Shown piece by piece: positions 48,444-59,403 of a stretch of 64,000 nucleotides of DNA (position 1 is its first letter; the number at the start of each line of letters is the position of its first letter). Both the position numbers and the translations under genes were made by a program. The notes beneath the pieces are model-generated. The model did not search any database. It worked only from the letters and a program-made list of their open reading frames with translations, and was not told the DNA's origin. The stretch comes from a virus (Duplodnaviria; Caudoviricetes). The stretch lies in IMG/VR virus record IMGVR_UViG_3300020577_013187, positions 8,233 through 72,232 of that record; one strand, written 5' to 3'.

Positions 48444-49694
48444 CAGTATCTTATTTTGAGTTGTACGAAATAATCGTACAACTAATTATTCTGCATCACT
48501 CATACTATCTCATATATTTTACTAAGACAAATACCACTTAAAGCTTTATTAGACTGAATCTTATACTTTTGCCATTTTCCAGCATCCTTAGTCATATCTA
48601 AGGTAATATCACTCCAAAATTTGTTCCAATTCAAACATTCTTTATTAAACCTAGATATAATGCAAAGAAGATCTTTAGTTTTTTGCTCATGCCTTTCTTG
48701 TTTTAAAACATAAGATCCATTACATTTATTCAAAATATCTAATTCTGAAACATTTACTATATCTAAAGGAATCAAAAAAAGTTCTATTCCTCCATATCCA
48801 GGATCTACGCTGTCATAAGTAATTAGAATATGTTCTCTCATATTTTATCCACTAACAATATAATTTATATATAGACCCAAAAGCTTCTGTAACTTCTGGA
48901 TCATCAATATATTCTAACAAAAGACCATCAGCTTCTTCATGATTTAACTCAACATCTCCCCCTTCTGTGGTAGAGTCAGCTATATCTTTTAGTTTTTTGA
49001 TAAGATCTTCTTTAGTCATTTTTGTTGATTGATTCATAATCTCCTATTCCTTGTTTTATACAAGCTTTAACTAATTCTAGTAAATTGTCAGCATCTATTA
49101 AATCAAGAGCTAGTAGGGGCTCCCTCTCATCAAAATCTTGATCTATAATCTTTTTTCTCATGTCTTAAAATATCTTGAATTGTAAATTGTAATAATATGC
49201 TCCCTACGCATCTTAGCTCTTTCTTTGATCCAAAACTTAAGTGACTTCTTAATGGCCCATCTTTCACAATCTTTTAAATCTAGTTGATCCCAAGCCAAAC
49301 GAGCATTATTAATTAAAACAGAATAATCCTTTTCCTGAAGCTCAAATTGTTCTTCATTAGAATTCATTTGATCCCCTTTAGATTATAATTTAATTATACA
49401 CTAGTCTATCTAACATTTCAAGTTTTTTATCAGTCCCAAGAAAAATATCTAAAATAAATAATGCCAATGACTCTTTCTTCTTCTTGAATAGAAGGAGTGA
49501 GGTCACTCATTCTTTTAGTGATAGAGTCATAGTTAAGAATTAAAACAAAACAGAGAAATAACAGGATGAGCGGAGCAATGGGGCTCTTCATAAAATCCTC
49601 AAATTAAATGGGGTTAAAAAACTAGGTAACGATATATTTCGGTGTACCACTCCAAAAAAAAATATAATTTTTACTGTACAAATATTTTTAAGAC

Positions 49695-49835
49695 TTAAAT
49701 GCTTTTGTCGTGATTTGCAAGGTTATTCAGAGCTTTAATTCTGCCCTCTTGCATCTCTTTACCTATCTCATCCAAAGTCTTTTTCTTCTTAACTTTCTCT
49801 TTGGGTTTAGGTTTAGAGTTTTCTTTCTTTTTCAT
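49695..49835 (-). CDS. 46-aa Lys-rich passenger ORF (not in the ORF track)
   Basis: MKKKENSKPKPKEKVKKKKTLDEIGKEMQEGRIKALNNLANHDKSI; TAATG coupling to the upstream ORF. Confidence 0.5.
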   Translation of the reverse strand: MKKKENSKPKPKEKVKKKKTLDEIGKEMQEGRIKALNNLANHDKSI

Positions 49836-49969
49836 TAGTTAGGTAGTTTGGGCTTCTTCAATAAAGGTTTTAGCATCTTTTTAAGGTCAATGTTTTTGCC
49901 CTGCTCATACTTTGCTATAAGTTCTTTATCTGTTAGCCCTTTTACTGGCTTTGGCTGCTTTGCTTTCAT
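49835..49969 (-). CDS. 44-aa Lys/Pro-rich passenger ORF (not in the ORF track)
   Basis: MKAKQPKPVKGLTDKELIAKYEQGKNIDLKKMLKPLLKKPKLPN; starts 1 nt after the HNH stop. Confidence 0.55.
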   Translation of the reverse strand: MKAKQPKPVKGLTDKELIAKYEQGKNIDLKKMLKPLLKKPKLPN

Positions 49970-49970
49970 C

Positions 49971-51089
49971 TTAAATGTAGTAACCTTTAAGTTTGTCAAA
50001 AGTTAATTCCAGTCCGCATTTTTTCAATGCGTCTTTTTTCTTTTCATATAGGATTTTTAACCTCTTTATTTTTTCTTCCTCCCTGCCAAGATGAACTGCT
50101 CTGTGGCAAGTAGGGCAAAGTGAAGTTATATTTTCCTCTCTGTCAATATTTGTTGGCAGTAAAGTATCTTGAAAAGCCATTGGTATTAAATGATGGCTTT
50201 CTGAAAAGTTAATTCCTCTTTTTGTAAAGAAAGTCATGTGTCCTGCATCAATTTCACAGGCATAATCTACCTTAGAAAGAGCAGTTTTAGCTAATCTCGA
50301 ATTAGTTTTGAATGACTTTCTTCCTGCTCCTAAAACCAATACTGGTACTCTATTGTTTTGCTTATCCAATTCACTTGCAGCAAGTGGTTTTACATTTTGA
50401 ATTTTAAGTTGGTCGGTCAAATCAAAATCGTCTGCGTGTTTCTTTTGAGTGAGTAGAAATTCCTCAACTATGGATTTAGGCACAACTCTTACAGCAGTCT
50501 TTTCAAGAAAATGAACCTCTAAAAAATAGTACCTACCAAAACAAATATCCGATAGATATTGGATAGTACTTTGATTCTTTAATTGATATACATATTTTCC
50601 AATAAAATCACTTTCTGTACTGTAATATTTTAAGGCTTTATTTTTTGTAATAGAATGCGCTGCTTGTCTTGACCTCATAAAGTTATATTCCTTTACAAAG
50701 AATAGAACTAATGATATGTAAAAATATTCAGGATTTATATTATCCGAAAAAGTGAGAGTATTTACATCATCAAAAATCATTTCAAGGCAGGTTTTTCTAT
50801 AAGCCTTGTTGTTTTTGAACTTCACCAATGAATCTACCTGAGATGAAATATAACTCATTATTCCATCGCTTTCTTTGCCATCCGAATATTTAAAATGCTC
50901 CCCAACGAAAGTCATTACCTCTTTCTTAAATGAGGGTGTATCTGTTAGCATAGATGAACCCGCATTATGAACAGCTTGATTGCCTATTCCTAATGGATTG
51001 AAGTCTTTGAATGCCATGAAACTACCTATGTTCATTCTTTGGGGTTCTACTATTTCTAATTCTTTAGAGGGGAAGAGATGCTCTATCAT
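49971..51089 (-). CDS. HNH endonuclease (McrA-like C-terminal domain), putative restriction enzyme
   Basis: YACEID...ESHHLIPM...NITSLCPTCHRAVH. Confidence 0.85.
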   Translation of the reverse strand: MIEHLFPSKELEIVEPQRMNIGSFMAFKDFNPLGIGNQAVHNAGSSMLTDTPSFKKEVMTFVGEHFKYSDGKESDGIMSYISSQVDSLVKFKNNKAYRKTCLEMIFDDVNTLTFSDNINPEYFYISLVLFFVKEYNFMRSRQAAHSITKNKALKYYSTESDFIGKYVYQLKNQSTIQYLSDICFGRYYFLEVHFLEKTAVRVVPKSIVEEFLLTQKKHADDFDLTDQLKIQNVKPLAASELDKQNNRVPVLVLGAGRKSFKTNSRLAKTALSKVDYACEIDAGHMTFFTKRGINFSESHHLIPMAFQDTLLPTNIDREENITSLCPTCHRAVHLGREEEKIKRLKILYEKKKDALKKCGLELTFDKLKGYYI

Positions 51090-52216
51090 AGATTCAAATA
51101 CTCAATATTATTTGGCGAATATGCAAATAAATTGGTATTCTTTTCTTTAGATAGGTTTTCTATTCTTTTCTTCATTATTTTGTAAGGCTCATCATATTTT
51201 TCCACGATATAGCAACTTCTGTTTTTCTTCATTGCAACTGCAAGGGTAGTTCCACTACCTCCAAACAGGTCAATTACTAAATCATTTTCTTTTGTAGCTA
51301 TATCAATAAGCCATGCTATAAGCCTTTCAGGTTTTTTAGAATCTTTAAAATCACAACCATCACCACCCTCTTTGTGTGTATTGGTTACTTCATCTGTAAA
51401 GTCTAAATCATTGCAGGGTAAAATAGGTCTGCCTGCTCCATAACTGGATTGATAATATACTCCACTTTGTCTTTTATCATTTTGAGTTTGGAACCATCTG
51501 TAACCGTTACCACCATTTTCCAAACCATTAACCTTGATTAATTTGTCGTCACCAAGTTTGCGTAAATGAGTTTCAAACCATTCTCCTGACCAATTTGCAG
51601 TCTTAATTTTACCTGCAATTATATACCTTCTTAAATCTTCTTTTGTACCCGTACCCTTTACAATTTCATACTGCTCCTTATCGTAAATTTCTACCTCTTT
51701 ACCATTCAGGATTTTTTTCACAGGGTTCTTATCCTTAATCTTTATTTTGTAGTTGAACTTCTCAATTTTAGGGTCTTTGTAATCACAATAGAAACGAGTA
51801 GTTTTTGTTTTTCTGTAAATAAGGATATATTCATAAACATCGTGGTATGTAGCATTAATCATTAGCTGCCTATCCTTGTGCCTTATTTTTATAGGGAATA
51901 ATCCAACAAAATTTGCCTCTGTAAAAAAGGTATCAATTATGTTTTTAAGATTGAACAATTTCATTTGATTAATCGAAACAGCAAGGAATCCATCATTGTC
52001 AAGCATTTCATAGCAGTCATTAATTACTTGCTCAATAAATAATGACCACAATACGTTACTGTCATTGTAATATTTTCTTGCCCCTCTATTTCTTCGTGAA
52101 TTATAAGGTGGGTCAAGGTAAATCAACTTAGCTTTTTTTTCTAAGTCTTTTTTATGGGTTTTATAGAGATTGCGGGAATCTCCTAAAATAACTTTGTATT
52201 TGTTTTTACTTTTCAT
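51086..52216 (-). CDS. Beta-class amino DNA methyltransferase (N6_N4_Mtase, Mod-like)
   Basis: LIYLDPPYN (motif IV) precedes KKPERLI...VIDLFGGSGTT (motif I). Confidence 0.92.
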   Translation of the reverse strand: MKSKNKYKVILGDSRNLYKTHKKDLEKKAKLIYLDPPYNSRRNRGARKYYNDSNVLWSLFIEQVINDCYEMLDNDGFLAVSINQMKLFNLKNIIDTFFTEANFVGLFPIKIRHKDRQLMINATYHDVYEYILIYRKTKTTRFYCDYKDPKIEKFNYKIKIKDKNPVKKILNGKEVEIYDKEQYEIVKGTGTKEDLRRYIIAGKIKTANWSGEWFETHLRKLGDDKLIKVNGLENGGNGYRWFQTQNDKRQSGVYYQSSYGAGRPILPCNDLDFTDEVTNTHKEGGDGCDFKDSKKPERLIAWLIDIATKENDLVIDLFGGSGTTLAVAMKKNRSCYIVEKYDEPYKIMKKRIENLSKEKNTNLFAYSPNNIEYLNL

Positions 52217-53166
52217 TTTTGGATTAATTCTTTGTAGGTCAACCTATCTTCTGCATTAAGCAGGGATAAAGAAAACCTGTTACCGTCTGTCGTTTTACGA
52301 GTATTGTATCTGTATGCAAACTCATCACAGTATTTATTCAGGTGTTTTGCGCTTGCAGAATGATAGATTCCAAAGATTCCTCTTTTCATCAAACTCCAAA
52401 AGCCTTCGATACCGTTGGTATGGAAATTATTGTCATTAATAAATTGCCCTTCGTTGTGTTTCAAAACTTCGTGTTGGTAGTCCTTGTTCAATCCGTTGTA
52501 AGCTGTCCATTCATCCGTTACCATAATTGCGCCTTTTTCTACCATAGATGCAATGATAGGCTTTAAAGTCTTTGATTTTGTATCAGGCACAACAGAAATA
52601 TTAACTAAACCGCTGTTTAAAAGACCAAACACGGGAGTTTTATCTTTTGTGCTGCGCCCCTGTGATTCTTTAACCTTTTTTGAAGCGTGACGATTTTTGT
52701 TTTTCCCTCCAAAATAACTTTCATCTGCCTGTGTCGGTGTGCTACCAAATTTCACTTTAGTTTTTACCTTAAATGAATTTCTTAACCGACCTAAAACAAA
52801 CCATGCAGTTTTTTGAGTAATCCCCAAATCCCTTGCAAGTTGGTGTGAAGAAATACCTTTTTTGTGTGAAGCGAAAATGTAGGTAGCAATAAACCACTTT
52901 CTAAGTGGCAAGTGCGAACCTTCAAACATAGTTCCAACGGTTACAGTAAATCGCTCCCTGCAATCCTTGCATTTTCTTAAACCCTTAAACTCACCTTTTG
53001 TTTTCAATTCGTAGTGTGCTTTGTTTTTGCTTCCGCAATGAGGACAAACTGGCTCCCCGTTCCATCTTAACTGCTCTAAAAATAATCTGCATTCTGTTTC
53101 AGTATTAAGTACTGATAACATTTCTGTGAAAGACTTGAATGCTGTGGGTTGTACTGACTTTTTCAT
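52213..53166 (-). CDS. IS1595-family DDE transposase
   Basis: RWNGEPVCPHCG...KCKDC zinc ribbon, GTMFEGSHLPLRKW, QADESYFGG, VTDEW, HTNGIEGFWS...YCDEFAYRYN. Confidence 0.95.
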   Translation of the reverse strand: MKKSVQPTAFKSFTEMLSVLNTETECRLFLEQLRWNGEPVCPHCGSKNKAHYELKTKGEFKGLRKCKDCRERFTVTVGTMFEGSHLPLRKWFIATYIFASHKKGISSHQLARDLGITQKTAWFVLGRLRNSFKVKTKVKFGSTPTQADESYFGGKNKNRHASKKVKESQGRSTKDKTPVFGLLNSGLVNISVVPDTKSKTLKPIIASMVEKGAIMVTDEWTAYNGLNKDYQHEVLKHNEGQFINDNNFHTNGIEGFWSLMKRGIFGIYHSASAKHLNKYCDEFAYRYNTRKTTDGNRFSLSLLNAEDRLTYKELIQK

Positions 53167-53189
53167 ATATTCGTGCTTTAATTACAGTA

Positions 53190-53221
53190 CAAATATAAGT
53201 CAAATAATTGGTACATCCAAA
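53190..53221 (-). promoter_or_regulatory. Bacteroidota-type promoter TTTG-N20-TATATTTG upstream of transposase 1
   Basis: caaatata at 53190-53197 and caaa at 53218-53221 on the plus strand; no SD before the ATG. Confidence 0.6.
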
Positions 53222-53273
53222 TATATCGTTACCAAAAACTATATCAGATTTTAAGATTTTTTCAAGAAGAAAA

Positions 53274-56590: not shown

Positions 56591-56693
56591 TAGATATTTT
56601 AAAATATTATTTCAAATAAGAGATAATTGCGCCCTTATGTATCAAATACACCTTAGATTGACATATTCAAAAAGTTTTTATAAAAACTAACTT

Positions 56694-56945
56694 ATGAATA
56701 TTAAAGAAATTATTTCATCTGCAGGACGCAATAAACATACAATTATATTAACCGCTAGAGAAGAAGATGGAACTATTGAAACAAGAGAAGCAGAGCCCTA
56801 TAGCTACCGAGTAAAGAATAATCATGAGCTATTCTATTGTTATGATATTTTAAAACAAGGTACGAGAACTTTCATTGTAACAAGTATTATATCTGTCAAA
56901 GAAACTGATAATACATTTGTTCCAAGATGGCCAATTGAGGTTTAA
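56694..56945 (+). CDS. Stand-alone WYL-domain protein
   Basis: ETREAEPYSYR...LFYCYD...GTRTFIVTSIISVKET, matching the WYL pattern R.vEPY.l...l.ayc..r...RtF....I..v..t. Confidence 0.8.
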   Translation: MNIKEIISSAGRNKHTIILTAREEDGTIETREAEPYSYRVKNNHELFYCYDILKQGTRTFIVTSIISVKETDNTFVPRWPIEV

Positions 56946-57127
56946 TAATAGTTTTCATCAACTGCTCTTTCCAATCCAGCTTCTATTCTTGTAGTAATTG
57001 CATCGAGTCTATCAGCTGCTGCAGCTAAATTTAAGCAGGCATTGATCCAAATAGCATTATGTCCTTTTATACCAGCTTCAAGTGTTGCCCTTTTACGAAT
57101 TTCAATTAATTCATCTCTTGTCCACAT
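56942..57127 (-). CDS. 61-aa passenger ORF
   Basis: AAGGAG RBS and ATG supplied by the left 38-bp inverted repeat. Confidence 0.7.
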   Translation of the reverse strand: MWTRDELIEIRKRATLEAGIKGHNAIWINACLNLAAAADRLDAITTRIEAGLERAVDENYY

Positions 57128-57162
57128 GATATAATTCTCCTTTATTTGGTTTAATTATATCA
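57125..57162 (-). repeat. Left copy of the 38-bp promoter-RBS-ATG inverted repeat
   Basis: Reverse complement is tgatataattaaaccaaataaaggagaattatatcatg, identical to 58540-58577. Confidence 0.95.
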
Positions 57163-57180
57163 CATTTATCTCACCTATTT

Positions 57181-57402
57181 TTAATCAATTTTTAAATTTT
57201 CACAGCCAATAGCCTTTAAACATTGAATCAAAAAGATAGCACTAAAAGTGCCTCGATTGATCTTATTGTTTACATTTTCAGGCTTCTCATTGACTCCAAT
57301 TACCTCCAATTTTTTACAAAGCTCCTCATAGCTCATTTCCCTTCGAGCTAACTCTGATTTTAAAATTCCCTTCACATCTCTTTCCCAATCTATCTTTTCC
57401 AT
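57181..57402 (-). CDS. DUF6471-like HTH protein, divergent from the transposase
   Basis: WERDVKGILKSELARREMSYEEL...NKINRGTFSAIFLIQCLKAIG. Confidence 0.8.
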   Translation of the reverse strand: MEKIDWERDVKGILKSELARREMSYEELCKKLEVIGVNEKPENVNNKINRGTFSAIFLIQCLKAIGCENLKID

Positions 57403-57526
57403 AATGTAATTATACCATGTTTTTAAACTTTATTTCAATTTAATATATCAAATATAGTTTATTTAATTGACCATAATATCAAATATGATACTTTAAAATC
57501 AGATACAATTTTTAAGGTTCATTTTT

Positions 57527-58516
57527 ATGGCACAACATTTCCTACTATCTTCCAAAGCTAAAACACTTTCCCTTAAAAAGGTCTTCACCATGACTGATGA
57601 TGAAGCTTTTAACTATTTCAAAAGCATCCGCTGGTCTGAAAACAATGGTGATCCTATTTGTTCCAAATGTGGCAATTATGAAAAATTTTGGTTTATCTCA
57701 ACTCGTAAAAATTGGAAATGTGCTTATTGTAAATCTACTTTTACTGTGACCAGTGGAACCTTATTCGCTTACCATAAATTGCCCCTGAAAGATTATCTGG
57801 CTGCTATTGCTATATTTACCAATGGAGCCAAAGGAATTAATGCTCTTCATCTTTCAAGAGATCTTCAAGTCCAATACAAGACAGCTTTTGTTTTAACCCA
57901 TAAATTAAGAGAAGCTCTTCAACAGCAAATTCCATCCAAGCTCAAAGGAGAAGTTGAAATTGATGGGGCTTATTTTGGTGGATCAATTAAACCTAAAAAT
58001 ATCAAAGCTGAAAGAATTGATCGAAGATTAGCTGAAAATAAAAATGATAAAAAGCAGTGTGTGGTTGCTTTACGATTAAGAGGAAAAGATCAAGGAGCCA
58101 TTGAAACCAGGACAGCCATTATCAAACAAGAAAATTATCAGGACATGAAATCGATCCTTGAAGCTCATGTTGATCAATCTTCAGTAATTTATTCTGATGA
58201 GCATCCTAGCTATGGAGGCTTGGCTTCTAGCTATACTCTCAAACAAGTAAACCATGGGATTCAATATTTTGATCATGAAACAGGGGCTTGTATCAACCAA
58301 GCTGAAAGCTTTTTCTCAAGAATCAGAAGAGCTGAAGTAGGGATCAATCATCATTTTGCTGGCAAGTATTTACACTCTTACGCCAATGAAATGTCTTATC
58401 GAGAAGACAACAGAAGAAAAGACAATGGCTGGATTTATCAAGACATCCTCACCAAAGCTTTACACAAATCTGAAAGCAATTTATGGAAAGGTTATTGGCA
58501 AAGAAATATGAATTAA
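57527..58516 (+). CDS. IS1595-family DDE transposase
   Basis: MAQHFLLSSKAKTLSL, ICSKC...CAYC zinc ribbon, SGTLF, VEIDGAYFGG, IYSDE, CINQAESFFSRIRR...YANEMSYRED. Confidence 0.95.
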   Translation: MAQHFLLSSKAKTLSLKKVFTMTDDEAFNYFKSIRWSENNGDPICSKCGNYEKFWFISTRKNWKCAYCKSTFTVTSGTLFAYHKLPLKDYLAAIAIFTNGAKGINALHLSRDLQVQYKTAFVLTHKLREALQQQIPSKLKGEVEIDGAYFGGSIKPKNIKAERIDRRLAENKNDKKQCVVALRLRGKDQGAIETRTAIIKQENYQDMKSILEAHVDQSSVIYSDEHPSYGGLASSYTLKQVNHGIQYFDHETGACINQAESFFSRIRRAEVGINHHFAGKYLHSYANEMSYREDNRRKDNGWIYQDILTKALHKSESNLWKGYWQRNMN

Positions 58517-58539
58517 TCTGAAAAAAGATAAGTGAAATA

Positions 58540-58577
58540 TGATATAATTAAACCAAATAAAGGAGAATTATATCATG
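58540..58577 (+). repeat. Right copy of the 38-bp promoter-RBS-ATG inverted repeat
   Basis: tgatataattaaaccaaataaaggagaattatatcatg. Confidence 0.95.
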
Positions 58578-58751
58578 GAAGAAAATAATGTAATTAAATT
58601 TAAAGCAAATGAAAAAGTAGTTAATTCTTTTTTAGCAATTCTTAATGCATGGAAAGATTTTAAAAAGCTTTTAGACGATGATGGTAGAGTCTGGTGGGTT
58701 GAAGCCAACGGTGAAAAAAATGTATTTCTAAAGTTTGAATTTGATAGATAA
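58575..58751 (+). CDS. 58-aa passenger ORF (not in the ORF track)
   Basis: MEENNVIKFKANEKVVNSFLAILNAWKDFKKLLDDDGRVWWVEANGEKNVFLKFEFDR; AAGGAG RBS. Confidence 0.7.
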   Translation: MEENNVIKFKANEKVVNSFLAILNAWKDFKKLLDDDGRVWWVEANGEKNVFLKFEFDR

Positions 58752-58952
58752 GTTGCCTAATTCTTTCTCAAATTTCCTACTCAACTCATTCTCAGATCGA
58801 TTAAAATCAGTCCCATCAAGCTGAATTCCATCATGACAAAAGGGACAGGTAACTTTAGCTGAGGTTCTAATTTCATTTGAAGATATTTGGAGAGTTTTCT
58901 GGCAATTTGGACATTTAATACCTTCTTTAAAATTCATAGATTTAAAGTTCAT
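58728..58952 (-). CDS. Zinc-ribbon passenger protein
   Basis: CPNC...CPFC; TTGACA adjacent to the right TIR (tgtcaa at about 59002) and GAGG RBS. Confidence 0.7.
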   Translation of the reverse strand: MNFKSMNFKEGIKCPNCQKTLQISSNEIRTSAKVTCPFCHDGIQLDGTDFNRSENELSRKFEKELGNLSIKFKL

Positions 58953-59010
58953 TATTTTAACCTCTCTTAAGTAAAAAGAAGCTAAATTAACCTTTAATAT
59001 CTGTCAATTT

Positions 59011-59403
59011 TTAAGGTGTATTTGATACATAAGGGCGGATAATTGGCTTTTGACTAGTAGAGTTTAGAGCTTTTGTCATATACTCAGGGCTAAAGGATAA
59101 TAATGAACTCTTAAAGCCGTCACTATAATTTTTAACAAACATTTCAGTATCTAGGTCAACATAACCTTCAAAAATCATAAATTGTTGATAATCACCATGG
59201 AGTCTTACACCAGTAGCTTTTCTTTTACCCTTAGGAACAAACATTAAAACAACAGAGTCTTTATATTGAGCATAAGGACCTACCTTTACACTCTTTAAAG
59301 TAATCTTCCAAGAGATAGGAAAACCAAAATCACCCATTTTACAAATAGTATATTTTTGTTCTGGAATTAAGTTTAATAGCTGATTGATGATTTCCTGATT
59401 CAT
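59011..59403 (-). CDS. Hypothetical phage protein whose C-terminus is now supplied by the IS TIR
   Basis: Ends ...SQKPIIRPYVSNTP, with RPYVSNTP* encoded by the right TIR. Confidence 0.75.
   Translation of the reverse strand: MNQEIINQLLNLIPEQKYTICKMGDFGFPISWKITLKSVKVGPYAQYKDSVVLMFVPKGKRKATGVRLHGDYQQFMIFEGYVDLDTEMFVKNYSDGFKSSLLSFSPEYMTKALNSTSQKPIIRPYVSNTP

Follow-up and report, generated by a model that had tools for sequence, protein, structure and literature searches.

A complete cargo-carrying IS1595-family insertion sequence in an AT-rich phage genome, with paired passenger genes and candidate outward cassettes at the edges of its core

Insertion sequences (ISs) are uncommon in phage genomes. 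The stretch of DNA analysed here, referred to as the window, comprises 64 kb of a 72-kb IMG/VR virus record (IMGVR_UViG_3300020577_013187) and harbours, at positions 56630-59037, a complete, cargo-carrying IS of the IS1595 family inserted in a phage genome. The element is intact, spans 2408 bp and begins with the letters CGCCCTTATG. In agreement with a preliminary description of this DNA, a repeat search recovered 26-bp terminal inverted repeats (TIRs) pairing at every position and an 8-bp target-site duplication, GATAATTG, on both sides. When scored with a matrix built from 124 TIRs of the family, the left TIR reaches 23.8, and both TIRs stand far above the rest of the window. The GC content of the element, about 0.29-0.30, equals that of the surrounding phage DNA. 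The insertion lies at the 3′ end of a phage open reading frame (ORF) of 130 amino acids (aa), whose final residues have changed from ...KPIISYLK to ...KPIIRPYVSNTP and whose stop codon is now located inside the TIR.

Within these ends lie six ORFs, in the order and orientation first described, and the layout with a convergent gene pair at each end stands, with 3′ overlaps of 4 bp on the left and 24 bp on the right (Table 1). Specifically, the two central genes encode the transposase and a DUF6471 protein and are transcribed divergently, while each arm, between core and TIR, holds an inner gene (orf61 on the left, orf58 on the right) converging with an outer one (WYL83 and Zn74, respectively). 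As judged from substitution patterns, the four passengers are conserved coding genes. Also seen again were an inward TTGACA beside each TIR and a 38-nucleotide (nt) stretch, identical at both inner genes, that had been read as promoter, ribosome-binding site and ATG.

Table 1. Features of the element and its insertion site (window coordinates)
Feature	Position	Strand	Basis or remark
Left target-site duplication copy, 8 bp, GATAATTG	56622..56629	.	Identical to 59038-59045
Left TIR, 26 bp	56630..56655	+	100% complementary to right TIR
Candidate -35 TTGACA for WYL83	56658..56663	+	2 nt inside left TIR, inward
WYL83, stand-alone WYL-domain protein, 83 aa, outer gene	56694..56945	+	Pfam, structure and PADLOC
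orf61, 61 aa, inner gene	56942..57127	-	Three homologues; ATG is final triplet of left cassette
Left outward cassette (candidate)	57125..57181	-	Extended -10 TGATATAAT, Shine-Dalgarno AAAGGAG, ATG
DUF6471 protein, 73 aa	57181..57402	-	Pfam, 1.2e-29
Divergent control region (putative), DUF6471/transposase	57403..57526	.	Promoter scan and conservation
IS1595-family DDE transposase, 329 aa, intact	57527..58516	+	Pfam
Right outward cassette, candidate promoter, ribosome site and ATG of orf58	58521..58577	+	Inner inverted-repeat arm
orf58, 58 aa, inner gene	58575..58751	+	78% identical homologue in L151
Zn74, four-cysteine zinc-ribbon protein, 74 aa, outer gene	58728..58952	-	Sub-threshold zinc-ribbon Pfam matches only
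Candidate -35 TTGACA for Zn74	59002..59007	-	4 nt inside right TIR, inward
Right TIR, 26 bp	59012..59037	-	26/26 complementary to left TIR
Right target-site duplication copy, 8 bp, GATAATTG	59038..59045	.	Identical to left copy
Phage target gene, 130 aa	59011..59403	-	Translation compared with and without element

The transposase matches the DDE_Tnp_IS1595 profile (PF12762; 3.4e-40) over residues 138-294, with the whole profile covered, and the Zn_ribbon_IS1595 profile (PF12760; 1.8e-12) over residues 23-70. It keeps all the columns that are invariant in an alignment of 27 sequences, and its ratio of nonsynonymous to synonymous substitution rates (dN/dS) against its closest relative, from contig L008, is 0.07. 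That some IS1595 elements carry passenger genes, as the preliminary description stated, is established: such elements form the category of transporter ISs (tISs) of Siguier, Gagnevin and Chandler (2009), as cited in passages of PMC11891212 and PMC3129680. The features of the family listed in a passage of PMC8101967 include an N-terminal zinc ribbon, found in all groups but IS1016, and the passenger-carrying groups of ISfinder are ISNha5, ISNwi1+ and ISPna2+ (Siguier et al. 2009, as cited in passages of PMC11891212, PMC3129680 and PMC8101967). The window element is a member of this category. In particular, it shares with the tISs the DDE domain and zinc ribbon of its transposase, TIRs with an 8-bp duplication, and unrelated genes within its ends, namely four genes unrelated to transposition, homologues of which are also present on contigs where the transposases tested have no match.

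To place the element within its family, 126 related loci were taken from viral and genome collections, and elements were delimited by their ends; relatives of the transposase number in the thousands. The end consensus CGGyATTATGTAGCAAAC.CACC delimited 78 elements, among which 65 relatives are bounded by perfect 8-bp duplications, with lengths of 1667-5876 bp (median 3862 bp). In 62 of these 65, the core is flanked on either side by more than 400 bp of extra DNA. Cargo varies greatly across the clade: 181 of 239 non-core ORFs remained singletons after blastp clustering, and a sample of 100 includes many known defence genes, with BstA, ShosA, PDC-S13, restriction-modification, SieB, Panacea antitoxin, PIN, Gp49 and Bro-N among the matches. 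DUF6471, on the other hand, is a near-constant partner of the transposase, as is an unnamed protein of about 143 aa without a Pfam match, here called F1, which occurs in 58 of the 65 cleanly bounded relatives, nearly always pointing inward with its start about 68 bp from the right end (e.g. L089:1548-1979 and L028:6644-7087). F1 is likely, from this distribution, to be a third core component of the clade.

ISNha5 ends follow the consensus CGGnnTT and ISNwi1 ends ggnnatTAT, with sizes of 3.45-7.9 kb for ISNha5 and 1.75-4.75 kb for ISNwi1+. The ends of the 65 relatives (CGGyATTATG...) appear to fit these, whereas the end of the window element starts with CGCCC and not with CGG; its 2408 bp fall within the ISNwi1+ range and below that of ISNha5. 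The window element further differs from its tIS relatives in lacking F1, in being phage-borne and in its duplicated outward cassettes, described below.

In 91 of the 126 loci, DUF6471 is the divergent upstream neighbour of the transposase, and its dN/dS in the comparison with L008 is 0.05. Because it is usually found beside the transposase in the 65 cleanly bounded relatives, we count it, on grounds of gene neighbourhood, as a conserved core partner and not as cargo. An AlphaFold model built with 30 sequences (pLDDT 91) consists of four helices, and its top Foldseek matches in the PDB are all helix-turn-helix (HTH) proteins of the Cro/C1 type, with TM scores of 0.57-0.67 and probabilities up to 0.93. 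In its four helices and length of about 70 residues the model resembles HipB and the controller (C) proteins that belong to restriction-modification systems (C.BclI, 2b5a; C.Esp1396I, 3clc; HipB, 4yg1); a sequence search of solved structures gave no match. Moreover, in six elements an XRE-type HTH gene occupies the slot of DUF6471. Because the model and the fold matches come together with an XRE gene in the same slot, DUF6471 is most likely a small DNA-binding HTH regulator, and both DUF6471 and F1 are candidate regulators of transposition. The region between DUF6471 and the transposase, conserved with L008 and in part with the more distant L017, contains on the minus strand a TTGAAA-18-TATAAT site with an upstream TG (57438-57409; 11 of 12 matches). 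A search of this spacer for TIR-like transposase sites was unproductive, the best internal match to the 15-mer core of the TIR having at least three mismatches.

The core is bracketed by an inner inverted repeat of 57 nt (89% identity), whose 38-nt core, TGATATAATT...CATG, is the stretch identical in both arms. Searched across the window, the corresponding pattern occurs at these two places only, against a chance expectation of 0.01. Each copy consists of an extended -10 box, TGATATAAT, a variable stretch of 5 nt, AAATAAAGGAG, then AATTATATC and the ATG, and in our reading it would be an outward-facing unit of extended -10 promoter, Shine-Dalgarno sequence and start codon, hereafter the cassette. 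The stop codon of DUF6471 lies within the upstream part of the left cassette. Altogether six copies were found in four elements (two window arms, two L008 arms, L151 and L156). Five of them are full, and here variation is limited to the 5 nt that follow the -10 box, against a divergence of about 21% in the surrounding core DNA; in the sixth, on the right of L008, the promoter part is retained and an ATG comes 6 nt past the -10 box. The cassette also contains a 10-bp dyad, TGATATAATT-N16-AATTATATCA. An RNA that includes the upstream arm of this dyad is predicted to fold into a 12-bp hairpin covering part of the Shine-Dalgarno sequence together with the first two letters, AU, of the start codon, with energies from -10.4 to -14.8 kcal/mol and z scores from -4.0 to -4.8 across the copies (window left, -11.3 kcal/mol, z -4.0; window right, -10.4 kcal/mol, z -4.4), whereas an RNA starting downstream of the -10 box is predicted to be unstructured. 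The inner repeats do not hold as a general feature of the family, in that an inverted repeat at the core edges is confined, among 34 elements tested, to the window element and the L008 type and is lacking from the other 32; the cassette appears confined to an AT-rich sublineage, partly on phage-like contigs.

As regards the left cargo pair, the match of WYL83 to Pfam WYL (PF13280), 17.3 bits, lies below the cut-off of 21.8, while its 69% identical homologue in contig L148 reaches 29.4 bits. The Atlas structure of WYL83 superposes on WYL domains with TM scores of 0.80-0.95, and PADLOC returns the AbiEii C-terminal region (6e-8) and WYL (6e-7). Judging from the structural model together with these profiles, WYL83 is a true WYL domain. 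Proteins like it, 84-100 aa long, fall into largely viral clusters, and its fold is that of stand-alone phage WYL proteins and of WYL sensors such as BrxR, CapW and the AbiEii-WYL fusions. Unlike the WYL regulators of defence systems, WYL83 has no HTH or effector domain and it has a fixed 61-aa partner. This partner, orf61, has three homologues (67-71% identity), and in every case a WYL-type gene of 83-87 aa converges with it; synonymous divergence of the pair is saturated, and dN is 0.22-0.27. Comparison of orf61 with F1, of which it might have been a piece, gave an hhalign probability of 6.8% and the idea was dropped.

The three further copies of the left pair stand in different settings. 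In the first, L156, which is a sister element's left arm, the WYL/orf61 pair is accompanied by an 88% identical DUF6471, the cassette and a TIR of the family type with TTGACA beside it. In L148, a GC-richer contig of 103 kb, the pair stands directly behind a transposase of the IS1 family (L148:3119-4430; PF03400, 29.6 bits), and its topology relative to that transposase is the one seen in the window; no inverted repeat passing the seed length was detected at the ends of this IS1-family element. In L157 the pair follows a different ORF, which by eye resembles a phage head-morphogenesis gene, and neither transposase was matched on the contig.

The right pair recurs in L151, where the orf58 homologue and its zinc-ribbon partner, their 24-bp overlap, the cassette and the TIR with its TTGACA are all as in the window, at a DNA identity of 76% over 541 bp. 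In this comparison dN/dS is 0.38 for orf58 and 0.30 for Zn74, whose L151 homologue is 52% identical and whose Atlas model is of low confidence. On the same 3-kb contig, a 17-nt match to the inner half of the family TIR (L151:529-545; 16/17, p ~3e-4) is oriented like a right end and precedes the cassette by about 25 nt, following a 138-aa ORF that is not a transposase; it is without an inverted partner and may mark a deletion or an arm-joining event.

Thus, sequence comparison describes the cargo as two conserved convergent gene pairs, each travelling as a unit and not as four separate loads. The claim of four independent single-gene loads falls with the recurrence of both pairs as convergent units in other settings. 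Against Pfam, PHROGs and PADLOC, orf61 has no family match at all; orf61, orf58 and Zn74 have no match to a known family above threshold; the two pairs match no toxin-antitoxin family; and a defence or anti-defence identity for the four passengers found nothing past the WYL domain. A role as defence or counter-defence cargo is plausible; the cargo of the family as a whole includes BstA, ShosA, restriction-modification, SieB and toxin-antitoxin parts.

Unrelated arms are seen in the comparison with the closest relative, the L008-type element (L007-L016), whose transposase is 83% identical, which measures 2890 bp and which resides on phage-like contigs of 77-101 kb; its flanks give a few weak translated matches to the window phage. 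By blastn, window positions 57125-58560 align with L008 3109-4546 at 79% and the TIRs align too, whereas between TIR and cassette nothing aligns. The left arm of L008 holds a 71-aa ORF, a KTSC protein and a 64-aa ORF, and its right arm a 198-aa protein. Hence the suggestion of a modular platform holds in part: TIRs, core and cassettes are kept while the arms of the 83% relative are unrelated, but the four-slot form is not retained. Likewise, the mirror-symmetric layout is present here but is particular to the window copy, the L008 type carrying three genes left of the core and a single one right of it.

The L008-type element occurs in at least two different flanks. Two copies (L009:2354-5243 and L011:142-3031) lie in flanks unlike those of L007 and lack a matching 8-bp duplication, a pattern suggestive of two copies having recombined and not of a simple insertion. 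A more distant relative (66%), L017, lacks the inner repeat and carries a SieB superinfection-exclusion gene that abuts DUF6471 with no gap (L017:554-1111; junction 1111/1112), on a contig with copper-oxidase genes. Contigs of transposases that are 54-60% identical were considered as members of the sublineage and set aside, being too short or without cassettes; around a 54% relative, two family-type ends lie in direct orientation 1.9 kb apart (L145:370 and L145:2241), and may reflect two adjacent elements or an end duplication.

Taken together, these observations make it probable, as far as sequence can tell, that we are dealing with a compact IS1595 transporter IS of an AT-rich phage, endowed with a conserved core, two exchangeable cargo arms and outward cassettes. 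The transposase would move the whole TIR-bounded unit by DDE transposition, and DUF6471, as a small HTH protein, would regulate the divergent promoters. The near-invariant cassette at each core edge would act as an outward extended -10 promoter and ribosome site expressing the inner cargo gene; in read-through RNA from the DUF6471 or transposase gene, the cassette hairpin would hide the start codon and part of the Shine-Dalgarno sequence, so that translation of the cargo would be insulated from transcription of the core. The arms may be exchanged between elements by recombination in the cassette or core on one side and in the TIR on the other, and the cargo pairs may be phage accessory or conflict modules.

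Known systems offer partial parallels to this arrangement. ISEcp1 and ISAba1 carry outward promoters that express neighbouring or captured genes, and IS10 is protected against read-through transcripts by a fold-back structure. Similarly to ISEcp1 and ISAba1, the element has a candidate promoter at the core edge facing outward into adjacent genes; unlike in those ISs, the promoter lies inside the mobile unit, twice and inverted, and is joined to a ribosome site and a start codon. The predicted hairpin is akin to the IS10 protection in forming only in read-through RNA and covering a start codon, with the difference that it would shield the cargo genes and not the transposase gene. What is new is that near-invariant outward cassettes flank the core in an AT-rich sublineage, partly on phage-like contigs, that arms are cleanly replaced between sister elements, and that the cargo pairs occur also outside IS1595 elements.

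The inner repeats have been considered in another light, that is, as the decayed ends of an ancestral IS of about 1.45 kb that held only DUF6471 and the transposase, and that recruited new outer ends together with flanking genes while its old ends were re-used as outward promoters. The repeats are indeed oriented like TIRs and coincide with the edges of the core; with its 1453 bp (57125-58577), the core by itself comes close in size to the smallest members of the family (1.5-1.7 kb); outward promoters are common in IS ends; and the TIR-like fragment of L151 lies just upstream of a cassette. The sequence of the repeats, however, does not resemble a TIR: they score at background level with the family TIR matrix (ungapped), and gapped alignments of cassette and TIR compared with random window 34-mers give p values of 0.1-0.9 for the window and L008, with a lone low value of 0.007 (L151) out of 15 tests. 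Moreover, the cassettes are without the terminal CGG..TTATG block, and it is the outer TIRs that match the family consensus. Since neither matrix nor gapped alignment yields a significant similarity, relic TIRs were rejected as the explanation of the repeats and are kept only as an improbable alternative. Less credible still is the original proposal of four standard, independently promoted slots (two TIR and two inner-repeat promoters) into which small genes are loaded singly. It draws on the mirror symmetry of the window copy, on the TTGACA adjoining both TIRs and on the differing arms of sister elements, and is contradicted by the pairs themselves, which recur elsewhere with their convergent overlap maintained and, on the left, occur in L148 and L157 with neither TIR nor cassette. 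It also conflicts with the three-plus-one gene arrangement of the L008 type, with the absence of the inner repeat from L017 and 32 other relatives, and with the TIR-side candidate promoters, whose -10 boxes are weak and not above chance; that of WYL83, for instance, has TAAAAA as its -10 and a leader of about 8 nt.

A different emphasis would be placed by regarding each pair as an addiction or conflict module, toxin-antitoxin-like or anti-defence, that retains the IS in the phage, possibly with mutual antisense control through convergent overlapping transcription. The maintenance of the pairs as units across an IS1595 element, an IS1-family element and a transposase-free contig would fit such a function, as would the 24-bp overlap retained in both copies of the right pair, the frequent use of WYL domains as sensor parts of defence systems (PADLOC matches) and the wealth of toxin-antitoxin and defence genes in the family cargo. 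Set against this, no known family of toxins, antitoxins, defence or anti-defence proteins was matched above threshold by any of the four, and small phage accessory genes are so common that their co-occurrence is weak evidence; we regard this function as possible, if on balance unlikely. A bolder form of the transporter interpretation, which we hold to be doubtful, sees in the sublineage, phage-borne copies included, a portable expression and exchange core with identical cassettes at both edges; these and the TIRs would serve as fixed recombination joints for swapping two-gene modules between phages, and the DUF6471 HTH protein or the read-through hairpin might control the cassettes. The sequence data partly support a modular cargo platform and leave the four-slot platform unsupported.

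A number of points weigh against the transporter interpretation as drawn above. The cassette-bearing sublineage is represented by only four elements or fragments, and neither the exact cassette pattern in viral contigs nor the TIR pattern in viral and JGI metagenome contigs retrieved further members; the same is true of single-protein transposase scans and of blastn against deposited phages. Recombination as the mechanism of the swap is deduced solely from homology breakpoints, and the search for an empty site recovered none, the relatives of the target gene being only 34-38% identical. For DUF6471, the Foldseek E-values are weak (at least 0.66), there is no sequence or profile similarity to the HTH regulators it resembles in fold, and homology to the XRE proteins that replace it in its slot was rejected (hhalign probability 0.8%). 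Regarding the cassette, the hairpin stems are invariant and hence provide no covariation support, and the dyad could serve as an operator for a protein, or could simply result from two -10 boxes placed back to back. In fact, the promoter scan detected an inward extended -10 site (58594-58567, ATTACA-16-TATAAT with TG), which is the other half of the cassette dyad and which, if active, would give RNA antisense to the transposase 3′ end. Finally, a generic sigma-70-like scan found 9 sites versus 13.1 expected, with no enrichment, the consensus used being possibly not that of the host; the genes had been called independently promoted, and of this the sequence gives no proof.

The same phage harbours a second IS1595-family cargo element about 3.4 kb away (window 49625-53233), bounded by 25-nt TIRs (92%). 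On its minus strand lie the gene of a transposase of 317 aa and two further ORFs, one methyltransferase-like (376 aa) and one whose C-terminus is HNH-like (372 aa). This second element is unrelated to the one described here, with which it has no DNA similarity.

The intact state of the element, the match of its base composition and the few distantly similar genes shared by the sister contigs indicate that this IS is apparently at home in phage. If the portable-core form of the transporter interpretation were true, the IS would represent a vehicle shuffling accessory genes among virulent phages. Were the cassette-flanked core to express and exchange two-gene modules, it would provide phages with a simple natural route for trading accessory genes, and the cassette would be a short promoter and ribosome-site unit that is directly testable.

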